From the NCBI GenBank assembly GCA_965242525.1, contig OZ251459.1:2537037-2601036 (forward strand): 64,000 bases of DNA, given 5' to 3'. This stretch comes from an uncultured Candidatus Binatia bacterium (lineage in GTDB: Bacteria > Desulfobacterota > Binatia > UBA9968 > JAJDTQ01). The notes under the pieces were generated by a model. That model saw nothing but the letters and a program-made list of their open reading frames with translations. It was not told the DNA's origin and ran no database searches. Shown here one piece after another: positions 1-35,562 of this stretch. Position numbers and translations under genes: made by a program. Position 1 is the first letter of the stretch. Each line of letters opens with the position of its first letter.

Positions 1-1
1 G

Positions 2-1144
2 GCCGGTGACGGCGAAGTCGCCTTCGACTCCCTGGTCCGGGAAGAGGAGGGCGTTCCCGCACGGGACGCTTCCGCCCACGAACCCGCGTTCGCGGTCTGC
101 ACCTCCGGCACCACCGGACGGCCCAAGGTCATCGTCCATGCGCATCGGTGGATCGTGGCCCTGGGGGACCTCAACCGCTACCGACTTCCGCCCGAGGACG
201 GCGACGTGGTCATGGCCACGGGCGAGTGGAGCTTCATCAGCGCCCTGGGCCACAACCTGCTCTTTCCGCTCCGCAACGGGGTCACATGCGCGGTTCTGTC
301 CGGGCGCGCCGCGCCCGATAACGTGCTGGCGCAAGCGGCCGCCCTGGGCGTCACCGTGCTGCATTCCGTGGCAACGGTCTATCGCCGGATGCTGGCCGCG
401 GAGGGGATCGAGGACCGGTACGACCTCCGCCGGCTGCGGTGCGCGCACTCCACCGGCGAGCCCCTGCGCGAGGCCGCCTACCGGCAATGGAAGTCCCGTT
501 TCGGTTGCGAGATGTACGAGCACTACGGGGTCTCGGAGTACCAGCTCGTGGTGGGGCAGGGACCCCGGCATCCGGTGAAGCCCGGGTCGGTAGGGGTTCC
601 GGCCCCGGACGTGGGCATTCGCCTCATGGACGACGCCGGCGGCCCGGCGCCGGATGGGGAGGCGGGGCGGGCGGTGGTCTCCGCCGACGACCCCGGGCTC
701 TTCCTCGAATACTACCGGGACCCCGTGCGCACCGAAGCGGCGCGGGGCCGCGGCTTCTACGATACCGGCGACCTGGCCTACCGGGACCCGGACGGCTATT
801 TCTTCATCGTCGGACGGAGCGACGACTGTTTCAAGAGCCGCGGCCTGTTCGTCGCGCCCACGGAAGTGGAGAACGCCCTCCAGCGCCATCCCGCGGTGGC
901 CGAGGCCGTGGTGGCGCCCGTGCCCGACCCGGAGATCGGCAACCGCGTGCTGGCCGTGGTGGTGCCGGCCCCGGGCCATGAGCCTTCCGCGGAACTGGCG
1001 GAGACCCTGCGCCGGAGCCTCGGGGAAGAACTCGCCCACTTCAAGATCCCTTACCGCATCGACTTCACCGGGTCCCTCCCCAAGAGCCCGGTGGGCAAGA
1101 TCCTGCGGAGCGAGGTGGTCCCGGGAAAGTCCCGTTCGGGTTGA
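2..1144 (+). CDS. AMP-dependent synthetase/ligase (acyl-/aryl-CoA ligase family), 5' end outside the window
   Basis: Frame 2 is open from nt 2. The translation contains the AMP-binding signature TSGTTGRPK (nt 101-127), then YGVSE, YDTGDL and a C-terminal PKSPVGKILR typical of the ANL superfamily. Track ORF 155..1144 starts at an internal GTG. Confidence 0.85.
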   Translation, partial: AGDGEVAFDSLVREEEGVPARDASAHEPAFAVCTSGTTGRPKVIVHAHRWIVALGDLNRYRLPPEDGDVVMATGEWSFISALGHNLLFPLRNGVTCAVLSGRAAPDNVLAQAAALGVTVLHSVATVYRRMLAAEGIEDRYDLRRLRCAHSTGEPLREAAYRQWKSRFGCEMYEHYGVSEYQLVVGQGPRHPVKPGSVGVPAPDVGIRLMDDAGGPAPDGEAGRAVVSADDPGLFLEYYRDPVRTEAARGRGFYDTGDLAYRDPDGYFFIVGRSDDCFKSRGLFVAPTEVENALQRHPAVAEAVVAPVPDPEIGNRVLAVVVPAPGHEPSAELAETLRRSLGEELAHFKIPYRIDFTGSLPKSPVGKILRSEVVPGKSRSG

Positions 1145-1183
1145 GGGGTGAGCCGGCGCCGGCAGATCCGTAGCGCGGCGGCG

Positions 1184-1714
1184 CTAAACTGCGATGAAAT
1201 TCCTGAGAAGCTCGGGGAATCGCTCAACGAACCTGGTTGCGTCGGAGTAGAGGTTGTATATCTCTTCCGATGTCTTCTCGAGCGTGAAGTCGCTGAAGTC
1301 GCGGTGGACCAGGCGATTTCTTTCCCGTCCGATCTCCAGAAACGCCTTGATGGAAGAATTCAAGCTATCGTCGTCACGCACCATCTGCTCCATACTCTTC
1401 TTGAATGCGTCTCCAAAGAGGGCAAAAAATGTATTGGCGTTTCCCGATCTCCAAGCGAACCATGTGTAGTATTGGCCGGTGATCGCCTTTATGTTGATTA
1501 GGTAGGCCAAGGGATGCTTATCGCCTATGATCTCTCTGGCAAAGTCGAACACCGCGTCCTGCAGGGAACGTTCGAAGTGACTCGCAACAGCGATCAGCAA
1601 CACTTTCCGAAAGTTTTCATCTGCAATTGTGCGCCACGACACCTCGCCATGGTCTTCCAGGAACTTCAGGATCTCCGAGAATTCGGTATGCAGGCCCTCG
1701 ATTTTCGAGTTCAT
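1184..1714 (-). CDS. HEPN-like protein (Rx4H motif), putative RNase partner of the upstream DUF262 protein
   Basis: 176-aa ORF. It has an RNRLVH (Rx4H) motif near the C-terminal third and an all-helical-looking sequence. Its ATG overlaps the DUF262 stop (ATGA, nt 1711-1714). Composition is AT-richer than the flanks. Confidence 0.6.
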   Translation of the reverse strand: MNSKIEGLHTEFSEILKFLEDHGEVSWRTIADENFRKVLLIAVASHFERSLQDAVFDFAREIIGDKHPLAYLINIKAITGQYYTWFAWRSGNANTFFALFGDAFKKSMEQMVRDDDSLNSSIKAFLEIGRERNRLVHRDFSDFTLEKTSEEIYNLYSDATRFVERFPELLRNFIAV

Positions 1715-2919
1715 CGGGGATGGCTCTCGGTTTCCAGTGAACCGACGATCTTTCGTGCGCTGTCCAGTCTTTTTCGTATGCTGGACGTTTGCGTAGTGCC
1801 TGCGTGGCTCGCTTCGGCGAAGCCCTGATCCTTTTCAAGCTCCCGTATCCGATTGACGTCCAGGGAGCCTTTGACAAAGCTGCGATTCTTGAATGCCTTC
1901 TCACAAGCTGCGGTGAATGCGGCTTCATAGAGAGCTATGTTGAACCGTCCGTTCCTGACGAAAGCTTCCTTTGGCAAGGTCGAGCAGGCGTTCAGGAAAG
2001 ACTTGAAGAGACCGTCGAGATACTGGTTGTTCTCATCGGAGTTGTACAGTTTGCATTTGTTGGAAAACTGGTTGAGGAACTTGACCATGGAAGGCGTGTA
2101 ATTCTCTCCTTCGATGAGCATGGCAAATCCGCGGAGGAGGATTTCTACGTCCTTCCTGTGCAGATCGGGTTCGGGTCGATCCAGGAGCCTTCGCCACTCC
2201 GGAATGCTGTTGATCCGGTACAGCAGCTCATAGAAATTCGAATGGTACATACTACTGCGGATTTCCTGTGGTCCCAGGATAATGCCGCCTGAATTGAGTC
2301 GGTTGAAGATTTCGTATATCGAGGAATCATCGTCGGAAGGCAAATTTTGCTTGACAACGATATTTCGGAGTGGCCGCAGGTCGAACTGTACCTTATGTTC
2401 TCCAAGTGTCGAGTAGTTCAGGTTTTTGAAGCGGTTATGCTGGCTTGGCAGTTTATCGGGCAGTTGAAGGTTAAATGCCTGGAAGTACTTGTCGTCGTGC
2501 AGGATCTCATCGGGAATTTTCCCTTCACGATGAAAAACCTCACGGAGCGCTACTCTTTTGTCTGCTTTGGGGAAACGCATTTTCACAAAGTAGTAGATGG
2601 ACATCAGGCGCTGTTGCCCATCTATCACGAGAAACTGGTTACGTTGCTGCTCGTACAGAAAGAGTTGAGGTATCGGCAGACCGAGGATAAGTGATTCGAT
2701 CAGTCTGGAGGCGCGCCTCAAATCCCATACGAAGTTGCGTTGGAAGCCGGGAATCCGCACTGCGCCTGATTCCACGAAGCTGTACAAGGTCATCACGTTG
2801 AAGTCGTTGGGAGATACCGTGACGTCGTACTCTTCGACTTCTATTCCATCGGCGTCTTGCGCGTAATCCTCAAACCAAGAGGATGCTCCGTTGTCGTCCA
2901 TGTGCTTCTCCTCGTTCAC
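1711..2919 (-). CDS. DUF262 (ParB/Srx-like, GmrSD N-terminal type) domain protein without DUF1524 nuclease domain
   Basis: Motifs IPGFQRNFVW and VIDGQQRL are characteristic of DUF262. A GAGGAG Shine-Dalgarno sits upstream of the ATG at 2919. One sampled 60-nt line gives about 48 % G+C. Confidence 0.85.
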   Translation of the reverse strand: MNEEKHMDDNGASSWFEDYAQDADGIEVEEYDVTVSPNDFNVMTLYSFVESGAVRIPGFQRNFVWDLRRASRLIESLILGLPIPQLFLYEQQRNQFLVIDGQQRLMSIYYFVKMRFPKADKRVALREVFHREGKIPDEILHDDKYFQAFNLQLPDKLPSQHNRFKNLNYSTLGEHKVQFDLRPLRNIVVKQNLPSDDDSSIYEIFNRLNSGGIILGPQEIRSSMYHSNFYELLYRINSIPEWRRLLDRPEPDLHRKDVEILLRGFAMLIEGENYTPSMVKFLNQFSNKCKLYNSDENNQYLDGLFKSFLNACSTLPKEAFVRNGRFNIALYEAAFTAACEKAFKNRSFVKGSLDVNRIRELEKDQGFAEASHAGTTQTSSIRKRLDSARKIVGSLETESHPR

Positions 2920-3013
2920 CCTTGCGCCGCAACAGTGCGACTCGGCCGCCTGAATATATCAAGGGAGTCCGTCCGCGTCAAGTTGGCAACTGCCCCGGGT
3001 CCCTTGCCAAAGG

Positions 3014-6000
3014 TCAGGCTGCCGATTGCAGCGCGTGCCGGATGACCTGTTCCAGGCAATCGGGCTCGTTCAGGAAATAGACGCCGTCCGCCTTCCAGTC
3101 GCGGGCGGGGCGTCCGCGGTCGTCGATGTCCGCGGCCGGTGTGACGGAGAGGACGTAGGCGCCCAGACGAAGGTTCGGGTCCACCCTGCGCACCTGCCTT
3201 TCGATCTCCGCCATGTTCCGGTGCAATTGCACCTTTTCCCGTTCCTTTCGACCGAACCGGCTCAGCCCCTTGGGGTCGAGGAACAGGACGTGTTGCCGCT
3301 CGCCTTCCTTCAGCCAGACGATGAAGTCCGGGTAGTAGCCGAAGTCGTCGAAGAACGACACGCCCCGGCCCCGGGTCAGGTTGCGGATGAGGAACAACTC
3401 CCTGCCCTGCAGGCAGGGGTCGTCCTTCCGGGCCAGCCGTTCCAGCCCCTCCACCACGCGCCTCTCCGTCACGTCCAGGGGAACGGGCTGGACCGTAACC
3501 ACGCGGTCCTTCCTGGCGTAGAGCAGGGGCTGGTAGGCATGGGCGCGGGCGGGTATGACGCCGACCTTCAGGCGTGCGTACCAGTCCTTCAACTCGGCGT
3601 ACCGGCCTTCCCGCAGGTTGGCGGCCAACTCGCTGGCGTCCCGGACCAACTGGTCCTCGGCCGAATCCACGGACAGGTCGTAAGCCCCGGCGTTGTTCGG
3701 GTCGTCCTCGTCCAGGGTGACCACCGTGACCCTGTGGTGCTCCCAGCGCCGGCGTTGCCCGCGCCAGAAGCGCTCTGCGTATTCCGTGACGAGATCGACC
3801 GCGACGTCCTCCAGGCCGCGCGCCTGCCGGAACCCGGCGGAGTGCAGCCGTTCCGGCGGCAGGTAGAGTTCGTACCAGTCGTCGCTTTGCAGCAGTCGTT
3901 CCACGGTCCGCAGCGGGACGGCTAGGTTGCGCCAGTCCCTCTGCCGCTTGCGCCGCAGCAGCCGTTCATGGACCCGGGCCGCGTCGAAGAAGGCGGCATG
4001 GGGCTTGAGGCTGGCCAGGGATCTTTCCGCTTCGCGGCCGGCCGCGCCGCCGGAAGCAACGGACTGGAGCCGGGAGTACAGGTCCAGCGTTACGTTGGGA
4101 CGTCCGTCCTCCTCCGGCCCCGGCAGCGCGGGGCGTTGGTCGGAAAGGTCGTACCGCTCGTCCTCTTCGAGCCGGATGAGCTTCAGGTCCGTCTTCCGGG
4201 AGAAGTTCCAGGTGACCGGCAGCGAGAAGGTCTCCTGTTCGGTGCGCATCCCCTCCTTTGCCAGCAGGTCCCGGAATGCCTGCATGTAGTTGGCGCGCAG
4301 TCCGAAGACGTACAGCTTCTCCAACTCCGCCAGCTCGGCGCTGTCCGCGGGCGCCGCCGCCCCGGTTTCCCGGTGCCGCTTCAGGCTCATGTTCCAGCCC
4401 TTCAGGCGCACCCCGCGCCCGAACATCTGGATGATCTCCGGTCCTTCGCCCACGCCCACGTGCATCAGCCCCATGGTGCTCACGCGCCAGGAGTTCCAGC
4501 CCGCGATGAAGCGGCGCGCCCCGATGACCACGTTCACGGGCGAGCCCGGCCGGTCCACGTTGACGAACAGCCGCTCCGCAAAGCCCATCTCCCGCTCCAC
4601 GTCGAAGTCCGGGTCGGGCTGCTCGGTGAGCAGTTTGTAGAGCGCCGCGGAGTCGCCGACGTTGACCACCCCGAAGGGGTCGTGGTCCGAGGTCCGAAGG
4701 TGCAGCTCGCCCTCGCCCGCGGTGAGATAGGCCACGTGCAACGGCCCCGGGCCGTGGAACAGCGTGTCGCACAGGTCCGCGTAGAGGTCCTCGCCGGCCG
4801 GCAGGTGGGAGAGGCGGTCGGCGAAGACGTCGCGGCCGGCGTCGTCGAGCAGGCCCGATTCCCCGGCCAGCAGGCGCGCGATCATGGAACGCACCGCGTC
4901 TTCGTGGGCCAGCACCCAGCCCAGGAAGCTCAGGATGCGGACCACGTCGGACCGGGTTGCCTTGTCCGCCTTGCTCGATCCGGTCACGGTCTTGCCCAGG
5001 AAGACCCACAGGGGCTTGGCCGGGTTGAACGCCCGCCAACTCGCGCCCTTTTCCCGCCAGAGGCGGCATTGCTGGTAGAAGGTCAGCAGGCAGCCCAGCA
5101 GGTACGTGTCGCTGTTCGCGTCCTGCACCCCGCCCGGCAGGTTCAGGATGGCGTAGTCCTTGCCGTAGCCGTCCTCGTGGAACCGGCGGTAGGAATAGTC
5201 GAACAGCAGGCACTTGCCGTAGGCGTTCAGCAGGTCCTCGTCCTTCTTCCGGCTCACGATCTGGTTGAAGGTGGCCGAGTACTCGAACGTGAAGCCGCCC
5301 CGGGAGAGTTCCTTGCGATGTTCGCGCCAGGCATTGCCGGACGCGCCGAGGTGCCCCTCGTCCACCAGCACCAGGTTGTCGTCGCCGAAGTCCTGCACCG
5401 CCACCCGCTTCACGCCCTTGCGCCTGGCCAGCTTGTTCAAGTCGATGATCTCCACCGGCGCGAACAGGTCCGAACCGGCGCCGCTGGAGAACAGCCGCGC
5501 GTGCAGGCCGCTTTCCCGCAACTCCCGCTCGTGCTGCGCCGACATCTGTTCGTTGGGGGTCACCAGCACGACGTTGTTCAAGCGCCCGCCGGCCCGTCCC
5601 AGGTAGCGCCGGTATTGCAGGATGTGGGCGTGCATGAGCAGGGTCTTGCCGGAGCCGGTGGCGCTCTGGAAGGCCAGGGTGCGCAGGTCGTCCCGCGTGT
5701 AGTCCGGGAGGCCGAAGGTTGGCGGGTAGTGGGATTTCGCCTTGTTCAGGTCTGCGCACAGGGCCTCGGGGTCGTCGAAGTAGCGGCACAGGTAGTGCTC
5801 GGTGAACAGCAGGGCCAGGTACTGGTGCGGCTTCCAGGTCCGCCCGTGCTCCCCGGTCATGCGCAGCCGCCGGCTCAGCGCCCCGATGTGGGCGTCGTAC
5901 TCGGCGAACCGGTCGGGGATCACCTGGACACGCTTGGGGTTCAGGTACAGCGCCCGCGCGTACTCGCTCTCGCCGTCCCCGTCGAGCCCGGCCGGCGCGT

Positions 6001-6121
6001 CCCCCAGCCGTTCGAGCATCGCGCCCAGGTCCTCGTAGCCGAACTCCCGGCAGATGAAGCGGTGGAGGGCGAGGCGGTTTTCGAGGGGTATGCTTCCTAT
6101 CTGACGGCGACGTGACAGCAT
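3014..6121 (-). CDS. res: Type III restriction enzyme Res subunit (SF2 helicase + C-terminal PD-(D/E)xK nuclease)
   Basis: Helicase motifs ATGSGKT (I), VDEGH (II), YSATF (III) and QMFGRGVRLKG (VI). C-terminal YPDF...FLDPKG nuclease-like motif. The track ORF extends to 6160. I prefer ATG 6121 (MLSRRRQ...), which overlaps the upstream stop as TGATG. Confidence 0.85.
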   Translation of the reverse strand: MLSRRRQIGSIPLENRLALHRFICREFGYEDLGAMLERLGDAPAGLDGDGESEYARALYLNPKRVQVIPDRFAEYDAHIGALSRRLRMTGEHGRTWKPHQYLALLFTEHYLCRYFDDPEALCADLNKAKSHYPPTFGLPDYTRDDLRTLAFQSATGSGKTLLMHAHILQYRRYLGRAGGRLNNVVLVTPNEQMSAQHERELRESGLHARLFSSGAGSDLFAPVEIIDLNKLARRKGVKRVAVQDFGDDNLVLVDEGHLGASGNAWREHRKELSRGGFTFEYSATFNQIVSRKKDEDLLNAYGKCLLFDYSYRRFHEDGYGKDYAILNLPGGVQDANSDTYLLGCLLTFYQQCRLWREKGASWRAFNPAKPLWVFLGKTVTGSSKADKATRSDVVRILSFLGWVLAHEDAVRSMIARLLAGESGLLDDAGRDVFADRLSHLPAGEDLYADLCDTLFHGPGPLHVAYLTAGEGELHLRTSDHDPFGVVNVGDSAALYKLLTEQPDPDFDVEREMGFAERLFVNVDRPGSPVNVVIGARRFIAGWNSWRVSTMGLMHVGVGEGPEIIQMFGRGVRLKGWNMSLKRHRETGAAAPADSAELAELEKLYVFGLRANYMQAFRDLLAKEGMRTEQETFSLPVTWNFSRKTDLKLIRLEEDERYDLSDQRPALPGPEEDGRPNVTLDLYSRLQSVASGGAAGREAERSLASLKPHAAFFDAARVHERLLRRKRQRDWRNLAVPLRTVERLLQSDDWYELYLPPERLHSAGFRQARGLEDVAVDLVTEYAERFWRGQRRRWEHHRVTVVTLDEDDPNNAGAYDLSVDSAEDQLVRDASELAANLREGRYAELKDWYARLKVGVIPARAHAYQPLLYARKDRVVTVQPVPLDVTERRVVEGLERLARKDDPCLQGRELFLIRNLTRGRGVSFFDDFGYYPDFIVWLKEGERQHVLFLDPKGLSRFGRKEREKVQLHRNMAEIERQVRRVDPNLRLGAYVLSVTPAADIDDRGRPARDWKADGVYFLNEPDCLEQVIRHALQSAA

Positions 6122-6792
6122 CAGCAAAACAACTTGACTGCAAGCAAAACGATTGCACAAACACCCAAGAGCGCTGGGAAGATCAGTGGAGCGAAGATAT
6201 ACTCCAATGACCCAACAATGCGATAATAATACATGAACAACTGTATATCATACCTTTTTCTATTGGCAGAAATAGATTCATCACTTGGCTGTTTTGGCTC
6301 AGCTATGTCCTTCGATGATTCATCACTTGGCTGTTTTGGCTTAGCTGTGTCCTTCAAGATGTCCTCGCTAATAGACTTACTAAGGGGTTCACTGAAATGA
6401 AGCTCAAAATAGGAAGGTTGAGTGAATTCGCCTTTGCGCGAAGTCCAAAAATGCTTAAGGAGGCGGGTTCCATTCAATTGTCTGTGTAGTTTCCATGTGG
6501 AAAAAATGAATTTAACCATGAAGTAAGTCAATATGATGATTAAAAAAATCAAAAGTTTGCTTTCTGTAATTCCGGTAATTAGAATCCCCCGAACTATCGC
6601 ACCTACTTCCTCTTCATTGCCAGTGTGTGCTACATTCAGACCCAAGTCTCCAAGAACGTAAAAAATGGAGATAAACGACCATAAAATGGTCAATTTACGA
6701 TCGCGACGATTTAGGTCGTCGTCTACATGGACTTTGTATATCTCGATGAGTTCATCCAAGTCTTCAGCTTCCCGCTTCTGATCTTCTGTCAT
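6121..6792 (-). CDS. AT-rich small membrane protein of unknown function, inserted between mod and res
   Basis: 223-aa ORF with about three long hydrophobic segments (LTILWSFISIFYVLGDLGL, LLIFLIIILTYFMVKFIF, IFAPLIFPALLGVCAIVLLAV). Its start overlaps the mod stop (ATGA, 6789-6792) and its stop overlaps the res ATG (TGATG at 6119-6123). Two sampled lines give 35-38 % G+C against 68 % in the adjacent res line. Confidence 0.75.
   Translation of the reverse strand: MTEDQKREAEDLDELIEIYKVHVDDDLNRRDRKLTILWSFISIFYVLGDLGLNVAHTGNEEEVGAIVRGILITGITESKLLIFLIIILTYFMVKFIFSTWKLHRQLNGTRLLKHFWTSRKGEFTQPSYFELHFSEPLSKSISEDILKDTAKPKQPSDESSKDIAEPKQPSDESISANRKRYDIQLFMYYYRIVGSLEYIFAPLIFPALLGVCAIVLLAVKLFC
6275..6358. 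repeat. 2 x 42-bp tandem repeat inside the AT-rich membrane-protein gene
   Basis: gattcatcacttggctgttttggct(c/t)agct(a/g)tgtccttc occurs at 6275 and 6317. It encodes KDTAKPKQPSDESS / KDIAEPKQPSDESI. Confidence 0.8.
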
Positions 6793-9700
6793 GACTCTAT
6801 CTCCTCAAACATCAGTTCCCGGAAAACGGGATCGAGGGTTTCGGCAACCCAGGTTTCGCCGGGATGCTGCATGGCGTTCAGCGTGTGGTCGCCGTTGACG
6901 TAGATTAGGTCCAGGGATGAGACGAATCGGTCGCGGTTGCGGTCGAACCAGGCGTCCAGCGCGGCATAGTCCGTCTCGTGGATGTTGCGCCAGAGGATCA
7001 GGCAACGGCGCCCCTCGGCCTCCATGCCTGTGATGGTGAGTATGTCATCGATCCGGCGGCGGGACTCCACACGCAGGCCGATCAGGTAGTTGAAGGTTTC
7101 GGGCAGATCGACCGGGACTTCGCAGCGCACACCGTCGCGCACGACGGAGACGGTGTAGGCGAAGGGGTCCCGGAGCTCGTTGCCCAGCAAGGCGGGGCTG
7201 CCGGAGGTTTCGACGCCGAGGGCGTAGCGCAGCCGGTAGTCCTCTGCCATCTCCGGATTCTTGGCCAGGAGATCTTTCTGGCCGTCCGACAGTGGCGCTA
7301 CTACGAGGCTGTCCATCGTATCTTCGTAGGATTCGAGGCGAACGTACTCGAACAACTGGCTGACGCCGTTGCGCGAGACCGGCTTCCCGTTCTTCCAGTC
7401 CGGCGAATAGACGACCTTCTTCATGCGCGGCAGGATGATCGTGTCGAAGTGGCGACCGATTTCCACGAGCGTGTACCGCTGCTGCCCGCCGTCCTCCCGG
7501 TTGAGGTTGACCACCGCATGGCCGGTGGCGCCGGAGCCGGCGAAGAAGTCGAGAACCCGCGCACCGGCTTCGTCGCCGCCCGAAGCGCGGATACAGTCCT
7601 CCACCAGAGCGACGGATTTCGGAAAATCGAAGGGGTTGTCTCCGAACAGTTCCTTGAGCACCCTGGCTCCGTGGTTGGAGGATGCATACTTGGCGTCCCC
7701 CCACCATGTCTTGGGCGTGGACTCCACGTCCATACGCTGCATGAAGTGGATGCTGATGCCCTCCGTCCCCGGACCGTTGCCGTTTCTTTGCACACGGTAT
7801 TCGCCGGCTTCTTGAGAGACCCGCTCCCAACCGCGCTCCCAGTTCTTCTCGATCTTCGTCCCGTCCTGCTCCTTTACCGGCCAGACGACGGTTTCGTCCT
7901 TGCGCGGCTGCTCCAGGATTCGGTATTCCGAGCTTTGCTCGTCCCATTCCATTTTCGGAATACGCAACGTGTCGTCGTCACTGACGTAGATCGGGTAGTA
8001 CAACTTCGGCCGGTCGGCCCGCCGGTCGTTCGTTCCCGTCCGAAGCAGGTTGCGCCAGGCGTACCGTCCGCTCTCGTCGGAGAGGGGGTATCTCTGCTTC
8101 TCTTTCTCCGTCTTGAGAAGCGGCCCGGGGACGGCTTTCTCGCTACCGTAGAACAAGGCGTATTCGTGGGTCGGCGACAGCTTTCCCACCGACGTCCGGC
8201 CGATCGGCGTCGAGCGAACCGGAGCGACGCCGATTTCCTTGTCGAACACGTCCTGCAACAATGCGCGTAACCGCCAGACCTCTTCGTCGTCGATGGCGCA
8301 ACAGAGAATGCCGTCCTGAACCAGGAGCGCCTTGGCGAGCGGCAAACGGTTCTCCATCAGCGACAACCACGACGAATCCTTGAGGTCGTTCTTGTACAGT
8401 ATCGACGACGATGCGGTGTTGTACGGCGGATCGATGTACACGCACTGCACCTGCCCCCCATACCGCGCCTGCAGCAGGTTCAGCGCCTGGAAGTTCTCTC
8501 CGTGCACCAGCAGGCCATCCGTCTGCTCGTCCAGCGGTCCGGCGTCGGAGAGGGCGGCCAGCAGCCGGTCTGTGAAGTCCCGGTCGAAGTGCCGTGTGTC
8601 CAGCACCAGGAAGGGGTTGGCCTTGAGGAAATCGACGCTCGGGGGGACGCTCCAGGCCGCGTTGCCGTTGGTCAAATCCCCCGCTATCTCGTCCACCGCG
8701 AACAACTCGACCCACTCCTCGCATTGCGCGGCGTTGGCGGCGACCTCCGGGTGCAGCGCTTCCGGCACCCGGTCCAAGGTGACGCACCAGTTGGTTTCCA
8801 ACACCAACTTCTTCTTGAGCCAGAGCCGCTTCTGGAAGTCCTCCAGTTGCGCTAGGAAGTCGATGATCTTCCCGCCCACGTGGCGCATGGCCCGCACCCG
8901 GGCCAAGGCGCGGTCCAGCCGGGGGGCGTCGCCCTGTTCCAGGTCGTCCAGGTTCAGGACCTCGGTGTTCAGATAGAGGTCCAGTTCCTGGCGCAGGAAG
9001 CCGCTCAGGTCCTTGTGGATGAAGTAGTCGAAGCTGTTCTTCGCTGTGTAACGATCGAGGTGTTTCGCGAGCAGGGTGCGCTCGCCGTTGGCGTTGGTCG
9101 GGGCCGGCGCGGTCAGCGCGGCCTGCCAGTCCGGGTCCACCGCGTTCAGGATCCGTTCGACCGTCGCCTCGTTGATGCAACCCTGTTGCGAGACGCCGTT
9201 GCCCGGCCACCGCTTCTTCTCGCCCTCCGTCAGCGGCCGGTGCTCGAAGCGGACGGCCAGTTCCCCGTCCTCGACCGCGGCGGCGCCCTTGCCGCGCGCA
9301 AGCACGAAGCGGCGCTGCCGGCCGTTGGCTTCCTTGACGTTGTCCTTCTCGTTGTCCGCTGCGGCGATCTCGAAGCGCACGCGCCTCGCCGCATCGCCCG
9401 CGCCCACCGTGAAGGCGTAGCTCGCGTAGTTCTCGGTGGTCTTGACGTAGTACTGGTCCGCGTTGGCCCAGTGGAGCTTCACTTCCTCGCCGTCGTAGGG
9501 AACGAGGTAGGCGGACCGGCCGCCGCTCGAATAGCGGCGTTGCGAGACGAAGTCGCCCTCGGTGTAGTAGCGGGCGAAGAAGTTGGCCAGATGGTTGTAA
9601 ACGTCGGCCTCGGCGTCCGCGTCCTTCTTCATCTCGGCGAGCCGCCGGTTCAGCTTGGCGATCTTGGGTGGGGGTTCGGCATTGGGGCTGAGCCCCAGCT

Positions 9701-9974
9701 CCCATGCCTGCTTGCGGGCGGCCTCCAGTTCCTCTTCCAGCTCGGCCCGTTCTTCGGCGCTGGTGAGCCGCAGCGTGTCCTTGACCTGCGGCAGCAGGTC
9801 CCGGTCCAGGAACGACACGACCTCCGCGGCCTTGAGGTTCATGATCCGGTACAGGCCGAAGTCCAGGTCGCCGCGGTCGAGTTGGAACATCTCGTGCAAC
9901 AGGGTCTTCAGCCGGTCGAGCTTTTCCCCGGAGCCGGGGGCCGGCGCGGTTCGGGAAGGCGTCGAATCGCTCAT
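6789..9974 (-). CDS. mod: Type III R-M Mod subunit, beta-class N6-adenine/N4-cytosine DNA methyltransferase with long N-terminal extension
   Basis: Motif IV (VYIDPPYNT) precedes motif I (DFFAGSGATGHAV), the beta-class order. 1061 aa. Co-directional with res. Confidence 0.85.
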   Translation of the reverse strand: MSDSTPSRTAPAPGSGEKLDRLKTLLHEMFQLDRGDLDFGLYRIMNLKAAEVVSFLDRDLLPQVKDTLRLTSAEERAELEEELEAARKQAWELGLSPNAEPPPKIAKLNRRLAEMKKDADAEADVYNHLANFFARYYTEGDFVSQRRYSSGGRSAYLVPYDGEEVKLHWANADQYYVKTTENYASYAFTVGAGDAARRVRFEIAAADNEKDNVKEANGRQRRFVLARGKGAAAVEDGELAVRFEHRPLTEGEKKRWPGNGVSQQGCINEATVERILNAVDPDWQAALTAPAPTNANGERTLLAKHLDRYTAKNSFDYFIHKDLSGFLRQELDLYLNTEVLNLDDLEQGDAPRLDRALARVRAMRHVGGKIIDFLAQLEDFQKRLWLKKKLVLETNWCVTLDRVPEALHPEVAANAAQCEEWVELFAVDEIAGDLTNGNAAWSVPPSVDFLKANPFLVLDTRHFDRDFTDRLLAALSDAGPLDEQTDGLLVHGENFQALNLLQARYGGQVQCVYIDPPYNTASSSILYKNDLKDSSWLSLMENRLPLAKALLVQDGILCCAIDDEEVWRLRALLQDVFDKEIGVAPVRSTPIGRTSVGKLSPTHEYALFYGSEKAVPGPLLKTEKEKQRYPLSDESGRYAWRNLLRTGTNDRRADRPKLYYPIYVSDDDTLRIPKMEWDEQSSEYRILEQPRKDETVVWPVKEQDGTKIEKNWERGWERVSQEAGEYRVQRNGNGPGTEGISIHFMQRMDVESTPKTWWGDAKYASSNHGARVLKELFGDNPFDFPKSVALVEDCIRASGGDEAGARVLDFFAGSGATGHAVVNLNREDGGQQRYTLVEIGRHFDTIILPRMKKVVYSPDWKNGKPVSRNGVSQLFEYVRLESYEDTMDSLVVAPLSDGQKDLLAKNPEMAEDYRLRYALGVETSGSPALLGNELRDPFAYTVSVVRDGVRCEVPVDLPETFNYLIGLRVESRRRIDDILTITGMEAEGRRCLILWRNIHETDYAALDAWFDRNRDRFVSSLDLIYVNGDHTLNAMQHPGETWVAETLDPVFRELMFEEIES

Positions 9975-10087
9975 GGGGTGTCCGTTCCGTTGGTGGATTC
10001 CAGGCCCCGGGTCGGGCCTTCGATCATGGGTCGTAGTCTATAACCGTTGTCGAGGTCCTTCAAGAACCCGTCGCCGGGCCCGTGTCT

Positions 10088-10116
10088 TTGACAACCAACC
10101 GCCGGTGCCACATACT
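10088..10116 (+). promoter_or_regulatory. sigma70-like promoter candidate for the tctC-like gene
   Basis: TTGACA (10088-10093), a 17-nt spacer, then CATACT (10111-10116). A GAGGAGG Shine-Dalgarno lies just before ATG 10147. Confidence 0.35.
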
Positions 10117-10146
10117 GCGGTCCGACTACGAGACCGAGGAGGGACC

Positions 10147-11214
10147 ATGCTGCGAATCACCCTGTCTGCACTGCTGCTCGCCGCGTCCTTGGACGCGGGG
10201 TTGCCGGCCCTTGCCCGGGGCGAGGGCAAGGCCGTCGAGCCCGATTTCGAGGGCAAGACCATCACCATGATCCTGGGCACCCGGCCCGGCGGTCGGCGGG
10301 ACCGCATCGCCCGCACCATCGCGAGGCACCTGGCCGCGAACCTACCGGGCCAACCGACGATCCTGGTGCAGAACATACCGGGCGGCAAGGGGATACCCGC
10401 CCAGCTCAAGTTCTCCCGGTCCAGGCCGGACGGCAGCGTGGCGGGTCTCGTGGTCTCGTCGGACATGGAAGCCCCCTATTTCGGCGCTCCCGGGGCCACC
10501 TACAAGCCCCGTGAATACAGGTGGGTCGGCTCGGTGAGGACCGGCAAGCAGCGCAACGTGCTGTTCACCACCCGGAAGTCCGGCTTCGGCAGCATCGACG
10601 ACCTGCGCGGCCGCGAGGTCGCGCTGGGCGCCCAGAGCGTGGGCCATCGGAGCTACCTCTACGGGCGGCTCATTGCGGAAGTCCTGGGCCTGAAGGTCCG
10701 GTGGGTCCTGGGATACTCCACCCCGGAGATGTACCTGGCCATGGAAAAGGGCGAGATCGACGGCCGCGTGAACGATGCGGCGTCGTTCAAGCGGGACCGG
10801 CCGGACTGGGTCGAGAAGCGGCAGGTGGTGGCCCACGTGGCCATGACGCTGCCCGGGAACCTTCCGCCCATACCGGGACCGCTGTTCGCCGACACCCCGG
10901 CGTTGATCACGTTCACGGACGAGGAGATCCACCGCAACCTCATCCGGAAGATGAACGCCACCAGCCGGCTCGGCGGCAGCGTGGCGCTGCCCCCGGGGAC
11001 GCCGGAGCCCGTCCGCGCGGCCTACGAGAAGGCGCTGGTCACGGCCGGCAGGGACCCGAAGTTCCAGAAGGACTGGGAGAAGTTCGTGGGCATCCGGCCC
11101 TATGCGGGCGTGTCCGACAGCGCCGAGTTGTGGGAAGCGGTCCAGATCTACACGGACTGGAAGCCCGAGATCATGAACGAGTTCAAGCGCCTGGGCCACA
11201 CGCCGCCGAAGTAG
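10147..11214 (+). CDS. tctC: Tripartite tricarboxylate transporter substrate-binding protein (TctC/Bug-like)
   Basis: Signal peptide MLRITLSALLLAASLDAGLPALARG, then ...LGTRPGGRRDRIAR...NIPGGKG... typical of the Bug/TctC family. It lies next to tctA. The track ORF start at 9655 is an upstream artefact. Confidence 0.8.
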   Translation: MLRITLSALLLAASLDAGLPALARGEGKAVEPDFEGKTITMILGTRPGGRRDRIARTIARHLAANLPGQPTILVQNIPGGKGIPAQLKFSRSRPDGSVAGLVVSSDMEAPYFGAPGATYKPREYRWVGSVRTGKQRNVLFTTRKSGFGSIDDLRGREVALGAQSVGHRSYLYGRLIAEVLGLKVRWVLGYSTPEMYLAMEKGEIDGRVNDAASFKRDRPDWVEKRQVVAHVAMTLPGNLPPIPGPLFADTPALITFTDEEIHRNLIRKMNATSRLGGSVALPPGTPEPVRAAYEKALVTAGRDPKFQKDWEKFVGIRPYAGVSDSAELWEAVQIYTDWKPEIMNEFKRLGHTPPK

Positions 11215-11320
11215 GCCGCGGAGTCCGCAGGCCGCGGCGCCCGGCGCGCGGGGCATGGGGCCCCGGGACGCCCACGCCGCCGCCCGGCCCGGGCGAAGCC
11301 ATGATCGTGCACCCGTTTCC

Positions 11321-13312
11321 ATGATCGAAGCCGCCCTCCAGGGTCTGCAAAACCTCCTTTCGCTGAACGTCCTGGCGGGGATGCTCGCCGGGGTCGGGGT
11401 GGGCACCTTCACGGCCGTCACGCCCCAGGGCCTGGGCACCCCGCTCATGTACGCGCTGTTCCTGTCGGTGGTGACCCAGTGGGACCCGCTGGTGGCCATC
11501 GCCTTCCTGGTCGGCATGGACGCGGTGAGCAGCACGTGCAGCGCCTACCTGCCGGTGCTCTTCGGCATCCCCGGCGGCGCCGGCTCCCAGGCCACCGTGC
11601 TGGACGGCTATCCCATGGGCCGGAACGGCCAAGCCCGGCGCGCCCTGGGGGCGGCCTTCACCGCGGGCGTCCTCGGAAGCCTGGTGGGCACCTTGACCCT
11701 GGCGGCCGCCATCCCGGCGGCCCAGGCCATCATCCTGTTCCTGGGCTCTCCCGAGCTCTTCGTGGTGTCCCTCTGGGGCCTCAGCATGGTCTCCGTGCTG
11801 GCCGGGCCGCGTCCGGTGAAGGGGTTGATGGCCGGGGCCGCGGGACTGGTGGTCTCCGTGGTCGGGGTCCAGCCCCAGTCCGGGGTCATGCGCTTCGTGT
11901 TCGACCAGCCCTACCTGCTGGAGGGAGTGCCCTTGGCGGTGGCCGCGCTGGCGCTCTTCGGCGTACCCTCCGCCCTCGACTTGGCGCTCGCGAAGGTGGG
12001 GGTCGAGCGCGCGCCCGCGCCCCTGGCGGGGCGGCTCCTGGACGGCGTCCGGGACGCCTTCCGCAACCTGTGGCTGGTGGTCCGGTGCAGCTTCCTGGGC
12101 GTCTGGGTGGGCATCGTCCCGGGCCTTGGCGCCCAGGTGGTGGACTGGCTCAGCTACGGCCATGCCGCCCAGACCTGCAAGGGCGCCAAGGAGACCTTCG
12201 GCAAGGGCGACGTGCGCGGGGTCATCGCGCCCGAGGCCTCCAACGACGCCAAGGACGGCGGCACCCTGATCCCCATGCTCACGCTGGGCGTGCCGGGGAG
12301 CCTGGTTTCGGCGCTCTTCCTGTTCGCCCTGACGGCCATGGGGTACGCCCCGGGTCCCTTCATGCTGGAGCGCAACGCGGACGTGGTCTATAGCATCGTG
12401 TGGGTGCTGGGCATCGCCAGCGTCATCGGCGGAATCCTGGGTCTCGTCTTCTCGAACCAACTGGCCAGGCTCGCGGAGCTGCGCTACTCCATCATCGTGC
12501 CGTCGATACTGGGTTTCGTGCTGATCGGGGCGCTGAACGCCAACCAGAGCCCGCTGGACCTGGTGATGGTGGTGTCGTTCGGCCTCGTCGGTTACTTCCT
12601 GAAGCTCTTCGGCTATCCCAGGCCGCCCCTGATCCTGGGCATGATCCTCGGCATCATCATGGAGAAGTACCTCTACATCTCCACCGCGCGCTACGGTTTC
12701 GACTGGTTGGCGCGCCCGTCGGTGCTGGCGCTCCTGGCTCTCGTGGCGGCGACCCTGGGCTACACCCTGTGGAGCCGGAGGGACAGGGGAGCCGCGTCCG
12801 GCCGAGGACGGGAGGCGGCGAGCCCCGGCCCGGGCTTCCGCGTCAACGGGGAAGCCCTGCTGGTCATGGGCTTCCTGGCGTTCTTCGTGCTGGTCATGCG
12901 GACCGGCGCCGAATGGCCCCTCGTGGCCAAGCTCATGCCGGTCTATATCGCCGCGGTTCCCGGGGCCGCGCTGGCCCTGTGGCAACTCTTCCGCGTGGCC
13001 ACCGGCCGGGAGCGGGCCGCGTCCCGCGGCGTCGAGATGGACGAAGGTTTCCGGCAGGAACTCGATACGCGGGTGGCGCGCCGGCGCACCGCGGTCTTCT
13101 TCGCCTGGTTCACGGGCGCCGCCCTCGCCGTGTGGCTCCTGGGGATCACCTTGGCCGTCCCCCTCTTCGTCTTCCTCTATTGCCTCGTCGAAGGACGGGA
13201 AAAGCTCCGGGTCGCCCTGCTCATGGCCGCGGTCGCCTTCCTCCTGCTCTGGGGGTTGTTCGAGGGCGTGTTCCAGGTGCTGTGGGCCGACGGCGTGCTG
13301 TTCGGCGGCTGA
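11321..13312 (+). CDS. tctA: TctA-family large permease with C-terminal TctB-like extension (fusion)
   Basis: Polytopic membrane protein with conserved TctA blocks (GIPGGAGSQATVLDGYPM, GDVRGVIAPEASNDAKDGG). About 150 extra C-terminal residues contain four hydrophobic helices resembling the separate TctB-like ORF at 19364. Confidence 0.85.
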   Translation: MIEAALQGLQNLLSLNVLAGMLAGVGVGTFTAVTPQGLGTPLMYALFLSVVTQWDPLVAIAFLVGMDAVSSTCSAYLPVLFGIPGGAGSQATVLDGYPMGRNGQARRALGAAFTAGVLGSLVGTLTLAAAIPAAQAIILFLGSPELFVVSLWGLSMVSVLAGPRPVKGLMAGAAGLVVSVVGVQPQSGVMRFVFDQPYLLEGVPLAVAALALFGVPSALDLALAKVGVERAPAPLAGRLLDGVRDAFRNLWLVVRCSFLGVWVGIVPGLGAQVVDWLSYGHAAQTCKGAKETFGKGDVRGVIAPEASNDAKDGGTLIPMLTLGVPGSLVSALFLFALTAMGYAPGPFMLERNADVVYSIVWVLGIASVIGGILGLVFSNQLARLAELRYSIIVPSILGFVLIGALNANQSPLDLVMVVSFGLVGYFLKLFGYPRPPLILGMILGIIMEKYLYISTARYGFDWLARPSVLALLALVAATLGYTLWSRRDRGAASGRGREAASPGPGFRVNGEALLVMGFLAFFVLVMRTGAEWPLVAKLMPVYIAAVPGAALALWQLFRVATGRERAASRGVEMDEGFRQELDTRVARRRTAVFFAWFTGAALAVWLLGITLAVPLFVFLYCLVEGREKLRVALLMAAVAFLLLWGLFEGVFQVLWADGVLFGG

Positions 13313-34395: not shown

Positions 34396-34827
34396 ATGGC
34401 GCGTCTGAGACACATCGCAATCGCAACCAGGGACCCGGAGAAGACCGCGGCCTTCTACCAGAAGGTCTTCGGTCTCAAGTTCGTCAAGCGGGTGCCCGCG
34501 TCGCCCCGCGGGAGCGGCGTGTTCCTCTCGGACGGACACGTCAACTTCGCCTTCCTGGACTATCCTTCCGACGAGGCCGCGGACATGGCGGGCGGGGCCG
34601 CGTACGAAGGGCTCCACCACATGGGTTTCCACGTGGACAGCCTCGAAGAGGCCAACGCCCGGTTGGGCGAGACCGAGGCGGAGGTGCTGGGCGACGAGGT
34701 GGGACCGCACGACAGCTTCTACTTCGAGCAGAAGGTGCGGGGACCCAACGGGGTCATCATGGACATCTCCACCAGGGGATGGGACATGGAGCCGCCGGGA
34801 CCCGATCCTGCGGCCAAGAAGGGTTGA
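34396..34827 (+). CDS. VOC-family (glyoxalase/bleomycin-resistance/dioxygenase) protein
   Basis: MARLRHIAIATRDPEKTAAFYQKVFGL... and ...GLHHMGFHVDSLEEA... are typical single-domain VOC signatures. The track ORF start 34159 is an upstream artefact. Confidence 0.75.
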   Translation: MARLRHIAIATRDPEKTAAFYQKVFGLKFVKRVPASPRGSGVFLSDGHVNFAFLDYPSDEAADMAGGAAYEGLHHMGFHVDSLEEANARLGETEAEVLGDEVGPHDSFYFEQKVRGPNGVIMDISTRGWDMEPPGPDPAAKKG

Positions 34828-34893
34828 TCTTGTTCTGTCCCTTGCACATGGAGTGCAGCTTCGGATCGTCCTCGTACCTGAAGGCGAGGACCG

Positions 34894-35562
34894 TCATGCC
34901 CAGATATCGTCCCTGGACTCCCAACGTTCCCTTACTGTGTGGAACCGGTCGATCCTCCCCTGGATCTTGAGGACCTCCCTTGGATAGAACTCGATCATCG
35001 TCTTGCACAACTGCAACATCCATTTCTTCCGTGAATACCCGTCGATCACGCGAATATCGTTGGAATTCGCGATCTGGATCTGGCCCCAGCCGAGTGCGCC
35101 GATGGTAAGGCAATCCCAGTCCAGGAATTCGATCGGAAAGAACAGAACTTCCGAGGCAGAGGCCCTTGTGCCTTCCATCGAGTACCTGATAATGAGCAAC
35201 GAGAAGACATTGGCGTCGGATTCATAGAATCGCGCCAGCCGTTCTACCGATGTGAGATTGGGCATATTGAATCGGGTGTCTTCCCTGTGCGTCTTGACGT
35301 CTACGATGGAGTAGATGCCCTGCCTGTCGGTGAACGCCAAATCCACCATGGCGCGGCGAGCGAAGTCCTTCGAGTACTCGCTGCACCAGTCTCCAAGAAG
35401 TTCATCGAACCGCTCTGCTACGAGTAATTCCAGCGCGTCGCCAACCGCTCTTGGGCTTCCTGCCGTTTGCGGTGAAAGGAAACCCTGTGACGAATTGATG
35501 TACTCCTTGACGGTCGAGGCCACCTTTCGATGGTGACCCTCGTAGTAGAAGCCTGACCTCAT
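34894..35562 (-). CDS. Putative Type II restriction endonuclease (PD-(D/E)xK-like)
   Basis: 222 aa. Its ATG overlaps the methylase stop (ATGA, 35559-35562). It has a D...VDVK motif (FTDRQGIYSIVDVKTH). G+C is lower than the backbone. The track ORF to 35970 is an overlap artefact. Confidence 0.55.
   Translation of the reverse strand: MRSGFYYEGHHRKVASTVKEYINSSQGFLSPQTAGSPRAVGDALELLVAERFDELLGDWCSEYSKDFARRAMVDLAFTDRQGIYSIVDVKTHREDTRFNMPNLTSVERLARFYESDANVFSLLIIRYSMEGTRASASEVLFFPIEFLDWDCLTIGALGWGQIQIANSNDIRVIDGYSRKKWMLQLCKTMIEFYPREVLKIQGRIDRFHTVRERWESRDDIWA

Follow-up and report, generated by a model that had tools for sequence, protein, structure and literature searches.

An exchangeable gene slot between mod and res of a long-form Type III restriction-modification family and a candidate membrane effector encoded in it

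The 64,000-nucleotide stretch analyzed in this study (contig OZ251459.1 of an uncultured Candidatus Binatia bacterium; the whole stretch is called the window in the following) contains a Type III restriction-modification (R-M) operon in which an AT-rich gene, here termed X, is located between the methyltransferase gene mod and the endonuclease gene res. Comparison of homologous loci indicates that the mod-res junction of this long-form Type III family is an exchangeable slot for accessory genes, and that X belongs to a protein family which, among the contexts read, is confined to this single Type III family. We tentatively favor the interpretation that X is an accessory defense component embedded in the R-M locus, most likely a membrane-targeting and possibly oligomeric effector of the back-up or abortive-infection type. 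Accessory genes embedded in R-M loci as such are already known; what is new, as far as the libraries and papers compared show, is the presence of a dedicated Type III socket, of a membrane protein family confined to it, and of an AT-richness that does not depend on the host.

Gene X and its junctions with mod and res

The operon comprises the following features:

6789..9974, minus strand: long-form Type III mod, 1061 aa (PADLOC MTase_III PDLC03646, 1.9e-193; Pfam N6_N4_Mtase, 1.1e-24)
6801..6806, minus strand: GAGGAG, Shine-Dalgarno-like motif within the 3′ end of mod (motif read in the sequence, function putative)
6789..6792, minus strand: ATGA overlap of the X start codon and the mod stop codon, read in the sequence
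6121..6792, minus strand: gene X, 223 aa, ATG start (list of open reading frames (ORFs) and translation)
6119..6123, minus strand: TGATG overlap of the X stop codon and the res start codon, read in the sequence
3014..6121, minus strand: long-form Type III res, 1035 aa (PADLOC REase_III PDLC03654, 3e-144; Pfam ResIII, 2.5e-07)

At both ends, X is interlocked with its neighbors. Its ATG (6792-6790) shares bases with the TGA of mod (6791-6789), and its own TGA (6123-6121) shares one base with the ATG of res (6121-6119). The GAGGAG motif lies 8 nt 5′ of the X start codon (6806-6801), and no obvious Shine-Dalgarno motif is present in the window sequence ahead of the TGATG junction, i.e., of the res start. 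The ATGA overlap is also found in the related loci L001, L002, L003, and L061, and the junction cTGATGc is kept in L001-L004 and L061. Homologs of res start with M(L/P)SRR..PL.NRLALHRF, which matches the window ATG at 6121-6119, and because the X stop codon overlaps this ATG, res extends over 3014..6121. An original prediction, made from the window sequence alone, had already claimed both overlaps and had preferred the same res ATG; the overlaps were confirmed, and the choice of the start codon is supported by the equivalent start methionine in the res homologs.

The two flanking genes show the sequence features of a Type III system. Mod is a β-class N6-adenine methyltransferase, in the translation of which DPPY (approximately aa 515) lies ahead of FAGSG (approximately aa 811), so that motif IV precedes motif I in the order typical of Type III Mod proteins. 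Res contains the superfamily 2 (SF2) helicase motifs GSGKT and DEGH as well as a C-terminal PD...DPK nuclease motif (YPD...LDPK, aa 932-952), which is the combination of SF2 helicase and C-terminal PD-(D/E)xK nuclease that characterizes Type III Res. With X intervening, the locus departs from the plain arrangement in which mod and res alone form the operon.

In line with the sharp shift at the gene borders described in the original prediction, overall GC content and GC content at third codon positions (GC3) are 0.406 and 0.433 in X, in comparison to 0.639 and 0.862 in mod and 0.679 and 0.911 in res. X is the 672-nt stretch with the lowest GC content of the 64-kb window (minimum 0.405, z = -5.5, relative to a window mean of 0.672 with a standard deviation of 0.049). 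Its codon adaptation index (CAI) is 0.20, compared with 0.73 ± 0.06 for 28 host ORFs. Codons that the host rarely uses make up 45% of X, in comparison to 4-7% of mod and res. A search against Rfam yielded no match within positions 1-12000 of the window; given this result and the codon-level constraint described below, X was not considered to be an RNA element. Within X, a single weak sigma-70-like site (9 of 12 positions, 6251 to 6223) is as expected in AT-rich DNA and provides no evidence for an internal promoter for res.

An exchangeable slot between mod and res

A scan of species-representative genomes yielded 80 loci (L007-L086), almost all from metagenome-assembled genomes (MAGs), with Mod identities of 52-85% at the amino acid level. 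A census of the mod-res junction was performed on the 77 usable loci, at which both gene ends are present. At 33 of the 77 the slot is empty or near-empty: in 30 cases mod and res abut or are separated by no more than 128 nt with no insert, and in three cases short gaps without a substantial ORF were found. The occupied slots (44 of 77) contain at least one gene or sizeable insert, with an AbiJ-like gene in 25 cases and X in four. Given this degree of occupation, the picture of a gene wedged between mod and res in the original prediction needs revision, as X is not a singular case.

The most common insert (25 loci) encodes a soluble protein of 264-317 aa that matches AbiJ_NTD4 in Pfam (2.3e-11) and PDC-S32 in PADLOC (4.6e-52). 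Other slots contain a 331-351-aa protein without family, a 181-aa protein with an N-terminal transmembrane (TM) segment, or multi-gene inserts, and the slot of L012 harbors a HigB-like toxin (1.6e-15) together with a helix-turn-helix (HTH) antitoxin-like ORF (HigB/HigA). Most X and AbiJ-like cassettes overlap both of their neighbors by 1 or 4 nt. An occupied slot was also found in a more distant plasmid relative from Aeromonas, with a Mod of 43% identity, where an AAA ATPase and a DUF4276 protein are encoded (L096, Aeromonas media plasmid pE31A, 9144-10921, with overlapping junctions).

Evidence for exchange comes from pairs of closely related operons:

6071..6800 of the window, no strand assigned: exchangeable cassette segment, approximate blastn limits
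Window versus L006: slot empty in L006; res 93.3%, mod 91.3% nucleotide identity
Window versus L099: slot empty in L099; res 93.6%, mod 90-92% nucleotide identity
Window versus L098: 317-aa AbiJ_NTD4 gene with a GC3 of 0.48 in L098; res 91.8%, mod 87.3% nucleotide identity
L002 (X) versus L022: AbiJ-like gene in L022; res 95%, mod 91% nucleotide identity

The window, L006, and L099 share a TctA/major facilitator superfamily (MFS) neighborhood, and X is missing in L006 and L099. Only positions from approximately 6071 to 6800 of the window operon have no counterpart in these two empty-slot loci, and in L098 an AbiJ_NTD4 gene replaces this segment. The comparison of orthologous mod-res loci that had been proposed together with the original prediction thus finds X to be present, absent with an empty slot, or replaced by AbiJ_NTD4. 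In L006, a GAGGA motif lies 5′ of the res ATG, and the distance between the two resembles that between GAGGAG and the X ATG in the window. The N- and C-termini of both Mod and Res look alike with and without X.

Slot contents were additionally noted at L012, L067, L048, L065, L019, and L043, only some of which were checked against Pfam or PADLOC. Further contents comprise an XRE-M78 peptidase followed by small ORFs and a PDC-M41A protein (6.6e-76) together with a 263-aa ORF, and inserts of several kb carry methyltransferase-like and kinase-like ORFs. The 331-351-aa protein, found in L073 and L076, contains the motif LLGAGASRAAF near its N-terminus. An assignment as SIR2-like protein was dropped, as searches of Pfam, PADLOC, and PDB sequences yielded no match and hence no support for it; the protein may represent another uncharacterized effector family.

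Genomic contexts of the X family

A first search identified six homologs of X with 51-80% identity, and a profile search of 1.84 billion representatives resulted in a family of 63 clusters (E ≤ 1e-3), nearly all with a length of 120-255 aa. Every X context that was read, approximately 15 loci reaching down to 18-31% identity (the window, L001-L005, L025, L058, L061, L075, L087-L091, and L094), is a mod...res operon of the same Type III family. In L001-L004, the X homolog lies between a mod of 1061-1080 aa and a res of 1031-1106 aa, whereas the L005 locus terminates within X. The genome loci L025, L058, L061, and L075 provided four further contexts. With the exception of L025 and L075, in which other DNA intervenes, X is located directly 5′ of res in all contexts. 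The same position, directly 5′ of a long res, is taken by P0189, which is 37% identical to the window X, and by the remote homologs P0183, P0191, and P0193 (18-31% identity).

Searches of IMG/VR, of phage and plasmid records, and of JGI metagenome contigs retrieved no homolog of X. A tblastn search against 50,697 phage records gave no match, and a fold search against BFVD yielded nothing at E below 0.5. PHROGs, phage records, IMG/VR, and BFVD likewise gave no indication that X belongs to a phage holin or superinfection-exclusion family.

Some loci contain more than one member of the family:

L087, 4327-5616 and 11201-11713: X-family paralogs
L088, 2865-4148: X-family paralogs
L091, 4849-6412 and 11879-12529: X-family paralogs

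In all three, two tandem paralogs are located between mod and res. L087 and L091 additionally contain a third paralog approximately 2.4 kb downstream of res, past a 226-aa gene and an N6_Mtase/Eco57I gene (Type IIG-like methyltransferase). The mod genes of L087 and L091 were called as two shorter ORFs, which could be due to a frameshift or an assembly error. In L094 (8603-9312), the first approximately 700 nt after X clearly encode the N-terminus of Res and the gene call starts at 9312, so that a frameshift in res is probable, due either to a pseudogene or to a long-read assembly error.

Selection, allele replacement, and lasting AT-richness

Homologs of X can be aligned with shared motifs and in-frame indels. 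Their pairwise ratios of nonsynonymous to synonymous substitution rates (dN/dS, ω) of 0.25-0.37 are indicative of purifying selection, with values of 0.14-0.39 in the N-terminal and TM core, in comparison to 0.4-1.0 in the linker described below. Judged by these substitution patterns, X is a real coding gene under purifying selection.

At the protein level, X is 57-89% identical where Mod is 84-96% and Res 77-97% identical. In the pair L003 and L094, flanks, mod, and res are 94-98% identical at the nucleotide level, whereas the X proteins are only 46% identical (dS approximately 1-2), and L061 holds the L094-type X allele. These comparisons indicate that whole X alleles are replaced between near-identical backgrounds, for which reason the assumption that X has simply diverged vertically together with mod and res turned out to be only partly right.

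The GC3 of X lies between 0.37 and 0.47 at every locus, with flank GC3 values from 0.6 to 0.94 and no positive correlation between the two. All types of slot cassettes are AT-richer than their flanks; for the AbiJ-like cassettes the GC3 nevertheless tracks that of the flanks (slope 0.5, r = 0.78). According to parsimony-polarized changes at third positions, W-to-S and S-to-W substitutions are balanced in X at an equilibrium GC3 of approximately 0.46, compared with 0.58-0.80 for mod and res in the same triplets, with both estimates based on small counts and only suggestive. As a further observation, composition changes stepwise along these operons: GC3 is lower in mod than in res in almost every case (e.g., 0.83 versus 0.92), and lower still in the slot cassette.

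A recent foreign insertion as the cause of the unusual composition of X was rejected, since homologs are equally AT-rich after a dS of approximately 0.6-1.2. As X genes of relatives are equally mismatched to their flanks, the AT-richness appears to be a stable property of the family and not the mark of a recent event. The description of X in the original prediction as a foreign-looking membrane protein gene tightly coupled to its neighbors holds. It had also been considered there that a similar and compositionally matched gene in homologous loci would make X a known family variant; a similar gene is indeed present in relatives, but it is not matched to its surroundings in composition. The AT-richness could either be selected, e.g., for a low dose of a harmful protein, or reflect the escape from a force that keeps GC content high.

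Predicted topology and structure of X

The following segments were assigned to the X protein:

6631..6693, minus strand: TM1, aa 34-54, with the motif lWS.iSLFYI.GdL and a basic RR.RK cluster ahead of it
6493..6564, minus strand: TM2, aa 77-100, following an acidic loop of predicted periplasmic location that contains a conserved WGI.ItGITE hairpin
6268..6441, minus strand: variable linker, aa 118-175, with a predicted cytoplasmic location and little predicted order; fast-evolving, ω 0.4-1.0, length varying among homologs
6275..6355, no strand assigned: 42-bp tandem duplication (1.9 copies, 94% matches) inside the variable linker, encoding a 2 x 14-aa repeat
6127..6222, minus strand: C-terminal TM3, aa 191-222, with the motif LEYFFAPIIFP..L..A

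A hydropathy scan revealed three segments (aa 34-52, 70-88, and 199-217), and the AlphaFold model based on an alignment of 38 sequences, with a predicted local distance difference test (pLDDT) score of 80 and a predicted template modeling (pTM) score of 0.69, contains helices at 26-47, 77-106, and 191-222. A model based on seven sequences had a pLDDT of 47 and was unusable, so that the 38-sequence run was used instead. The order of elements throughout the family is a basic N-terminal helix, TM1, an acidic loop with the hairpin, TM2, a basic stretch, the variable linker, and the C-terminal TM segment. The charges counted in 38 members agree with an N-in topology, in which the first loop faces outwards and the linker inwards. 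X is accordingly modeled as a three-pass inner-membrane protein for which a cytoplasmic location of the N-terminus and the linker is predicted. The three TM segments and the 2 x 14-aa repeat postulated from the sequence in the original prediction were both recovered, by hydropathy and AlphaFold and by the 42-bp duplication, respectively; the 14-aa repeat is present only in the window allele and missing from all homologs in the alignment.

Searches of X against Pfam, PADLOC, NCBIfam, and PHROGs yielded nothing above threshold, with a family without assigned function as the best and non-significant PHROG match (E 0.046). A Foldseek search with the model retrieved no relative from PDB (best E 2.4) or BFVD (best E 0.52), and no sequence match was found among the PDB sequences. 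A weak lead is provided by the Pfam family 8xMP (PF24838, octameric membrane protein family), which two close homologs of X match collinearly over the N-terminal helix, TM1, and TM2, corresponding to positions 2-105 of the 136 profile positions (P0003, E 6.9e-05, 23.1 bits; P0005, E 0.0038, 17.5 bits). However, both scores lie under the gathering cut-off of 30 bits and thus do not establish membership, and neither the window X (E up to 10) nor 46 other members scanned matched the profile. No literature on the 8xMP family was found. Among 38 family members scanned, one gave a sub-threshold match to WzyE.

Comparison with known systems

As a mechanistic precedent for a membrane effector that is guarded by an R-M complex, the Ronin system comes closest by analogy. 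Its RonA is reported to be the cell-death effector, lethal alone, suppressed by HsdMS, and triggered by anti-restriction proteins (10.1101/2023.04.06.535777). In both cases one locus encodes R-M subunits together with a small transmembrane protein. Compared by description, RonA is a protein of 61 aa with one predicted TM helix, whereas members of the X family have 170-250 aa and three such helices, and the Ronin locus encodes the Type I subunits HsdM and HsdS without HsdR, whereas X is flanked by complete Type III mod and res genes. In the EcoprrI Type I locus, PrrC serves as a latent back-up suicide effector that is freed when a phage inhibits the R-M enzyme (10.1101/2024.01.29.577857; PMC3710099). 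Like X, prrC is an accessory gene that lies inside an R-M locus, co-oriented with the subunit genes on either side; in contrast to the membrane protein X, which lacks such domains, its product is soluble, consists of an ABC ATPase and a HEPN RNase, and belongs to a Type I system.

Payne et al. described under the term guilt-by-embedding that defense genes lie nested within Hma, BREX, DISARM, as well as Type I R-M systems, with Type III systems lying outside their analysis (10.1101/2024.01.29.577857). The situation described here is similar, as diverse co-oriented cassettes are found inside a modification-based system and occupants of the slot match PDC-S32 (4.6e-52) and PDC-M41A (6.6e-76), but X itself matches no PADLOC model. 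HEPN and AbiJ abortive-infection proteins have been reported from R-M operons as well (Anantharaman et al. 2013, PMC3710099). The AbiJ-like genes share the slot in orthologous operons and the AT-richness relative to the flanks with X. In contrast, the two protein groups have no sequence relation, the AbiJ-like proteins are soluble whereas X is membrane-embedded, and only the GC3 of the AbiJ-like genes partly follows the host (slope 0.5). X and four remote homologs did not match AbiJ families in Pfam or any model in PADLOC, which does not place X in the AbiJ/PDC-S32 group. Finally, EcoR22I is a Type III system with an SNF2 partner that elicits cell death when Ocr is present (Silas et al., 10.1101/2023.04.06.535777). 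A long Res with a C-terminal PD...DxK nuclease is common to both systems, and enterobacterial plasmid relatives of the window Mod (41% aa identity) and Res (35% aa identity) share the published HTH-SNF2-mod-res layout, which was compared as a layout only. Differences are that no SNF2 gene is located beside the window mod and that mod and res of EcoR22I are not separated by a third gene. The same HTH-SNF2-mod-res layout was observed in the plasmid relatives L096 and L095 (E. coli pEC316_2), whose Mod proteins show 41-43% amino acid identity.

Genes nested in Type I R-M, BREX, DISARM, and Hma systems are a rich source of new anti-phage systems and of guard logic as exemplified by PrrC and RonA. 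To our knowledge, no such mining for embedded genes has been carried out for Type III systems, and X is a concrete and testable candidate for a new Type III-linked effector. Since near-identical backgrounds are available with an empty slot, with X, and with AbiJ, the slot also represents a natural experiment. Moreover, it offers a clean case of AT-rich, codon-poor defense genes in GC-rich genomes, in which selection for low dose can be set against escape from GC-biasing forces.

Possible functions of X

The interpretation of X as an accessory effector is, by analogy, favored by the fact that it swaps in situ with an AbiJ-type protein in orthologous operons and that, as is the case for embedded effectors, it lies co-oriented between the genes of the R-M subunits and is presumably co-expressed with them. 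Further points in its favor are the purifying selection, the association with this one Type III family, the overlapping junctions at both ends, and the signature of an arms race seen in the fast divergence and allele replacement of X. The state of the Mod/Res complex would then determine the activity of X, paralleling PrrC in EcoprrI and RonA held by HsdMS. Rare codons might keep its expression low, and translation of res might proceed via termination-reinitiation at TGATG, which would couple the dose of Res to the translation of X. Several points weigh against this interpretation. Pfam, PADLOC, NCBIfam, PHROGs, PDB, and BFVD yielded neither a recognizable domain of a toxin, sensor, or enzyme in X nor a relative by structure; homology to PrrC was likewise not found, with no ABC ATPase or HEPN match in Pfam and PADLOC. 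The effector role is argued from position and analogy, and translational coupling and low expression are read from the sequence. Many related operons have an empty slot and presumably work, so that X appears dispensable for restriction itself, and since toxin-antitoxin pairs are among the occupants (HigBA in L012), the slot may simply accept any small selfish cassette. Of the options named in the original prediction, an abortive-infection effector gained ground, as the slot of orthologous operons holds AbiJ_NTD4/PDC-S32 proteins, whereas a hitch-hiking gene, an anti-restriction factor, and an anchor are less supported because of the purifying selection, the exclusive association with one Type III family, and the interchange with soluble proteins.

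A more far-reaching version, which we regard as somewhat unlikely in its entirety, assumes that X serves as the effector in a Type III version of the guard immunity of Ronin and PrrC, with a selected AT-richness and with the slot as an effector socket. Here, X would be a membrane toxin with three passes, possibly oligomeric, that Mod2Res keeps inactive via its cytoplasmic N-terminal helix or linker, and phage anti-restriction proteins that jam the complex would free X, resulting in permeabilization of the membrane. The AT-rich, rare-codon sequence would have been selected for a low dose of the toxin and would make the synthesis of Res contingent on the translation of X at TGATG. The junction might then be a dedicated socket, serviced by recombination, for interchangeable effectors such as X, AbiJ-like proteins, and ABC ATPase modules.

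It also appears conceivable, if unlikely, that X is a non-suicidal component of the cell envelope, i.e., a sensor or anchor that places or activates Mod/Res at the site of phage DNA entry, or a co-expressed superinfection-exclusion protein that blocks injection. The predicted three-pass architecture, with the conserved WGI.ItGITE hairpin on the periplasmic side and the N-terminal helix and linker on the cytoplasmic side, would suit such a role, as would the association with this Type III family alone; fast evolution and allele replacement would be expected for a protein in contact with phages, and the tandem paralogs in L087, L088, and L091 can be read in the same way. On the other hand, soluble proteins (AbiJ-like, PDC-M41A, HigBA) fill the same slot in orthologous operons, so that the slot does not specify membrane anchoring, and the termini of Mod and Res do not differ between operons with and without X. 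As X matches no PADLOC model, it furthermore has no match among the membrane proteins in PADLOC-DB v2, and the absence of a significant PHROG match also does not favor an exclusion protein. Still less probable, in our view, is that X is mainly a selfish or neutral passenger that spreads by recombination via the mod and res flanks and is kept by linkage or addiction. Its AT-richness would then be neutral, as alleles too divergent to recombine would escape GC-biased gene conversion, or selection that keeps GC content high, and approach the AT mutational equilibrium. This would be in accordance with the varying presence between near-identical operons and the replacement of whole alleles, with toxin-antitoxin pairs in the slot such as that of L012 (HigB-like toxin, 1.6e-15), with the AT-richness of every cassette type relative to its flanks, and with the balanced W-to-S and S-to-W changes in X, i.e., an equilibrium GC3 of approximately 0.46 (small counts). 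However, X is under purifying selection with an architecture kept down to approximately 20% identity, precise coupling at both ends is retained in most copies, and the gene was not found in phages, plasmids, or other loci searched, which would be unusual for a free-living selfish module.

Two further explanations relate X to the control of Res. X might be a cis-acting expression throttle which slows or lowers the production of Res relative to Mod through reinitiation at TGATG, with the protein being secondary; we consider this improbable. Its CAI of 0.20 and the 45% of host-rare codons, as well as the AT-richness kept in all hosts whatever the GC3 of the flanks, would agree with a throttle, and in this clade X has a Shine-Dalgarno-like motif placed like that of res in empty-slot loci, leaving res with TGATG only. 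A pure spacer would nonetheless need neither a core ω of 0.14-0.39 nor motifs and a TM layout conserved over approximately 63 clusters, other occupants of the slot are ordinary defense-type proteins, and operons with an empty slot are common. Highly improbable is a role of X as negative regulator or anti-restriction-like factor that restrains Res, e.g., by sequestration at the membrane, and thereby protects the host during establishment or lapses of methylation. While the position immediately 5′ of res with presumed co-translation and the limitation to this res family would fit such a factor, searches of Pfam, PADLOC, and NCBIfam revealed nothing similar to known regulators of the anti-restriction or C-protein type, AbiJ-like proteins, which do not act as inhibitors, can take the place of X in the slot, and fast evolution and allele turnover fit an outward-facing conflict better than housekeeping control.

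The long Mod family and the flanks of the operon

With at least 7,945 matches, Mod belongs to a large family. The N-terminal extension of approximately 480 aa (window mod aa 1-480, approximately 8535-9974) is well conserved in the family, with many invariant columns in the alignment, and is covered by no Pfam domain. The names of the MAGs at the 80 scanned loci mostly point to sponge symbionts from many phyla; record names of this type are Poriferihabitaceae, Spongiihabitans, and Porisulfidus. Hosts of the long Mod include Vicinamibacterales, Gammaproteobacteria, Alphaproteobacteria, Nitrospirales, and Latescibacterota as well as Binatia, Spirochaetia, Caldilineaceae, Acidimicrobiales, and one cyanobacterium. 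This wide range of phyla suggests extensive horizontal spread in the sponge-symbiont habitat.

Just downstream of res, the window contains a second low-GC segment (1129-2978, GC content approximately 0.50-0.51), in which two genes were annotated:

1711-2919, minus strand: GmrSD_N/NsnA-like gene (Pfam 4.3e-30; PADLOC NsnA 1e-55)
1184-1714, minus strand: RiboL-PSP HEPN gene (3.8e-19)

As this segment is missing from the orthologous loci L006 and L099, it appears to be another variable defense cassette of the island. Apart from this segment and the X cassette, the only other region of the window with a GC content below 0.56 is a mild dip to approximately 0.555 at 34800-35700, relative to a mean of 0.67. 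A VapB-PIN pair is located directly 5′ of mod in L005 (7077-7747), L006 (7130-7800), and L099 (4130-4800), lies 3′ of res in L004 (6113-6783), and is absent beside the window operon; since this pair differs among orthologous loci, the flanks of the R-M operon are variable, too.

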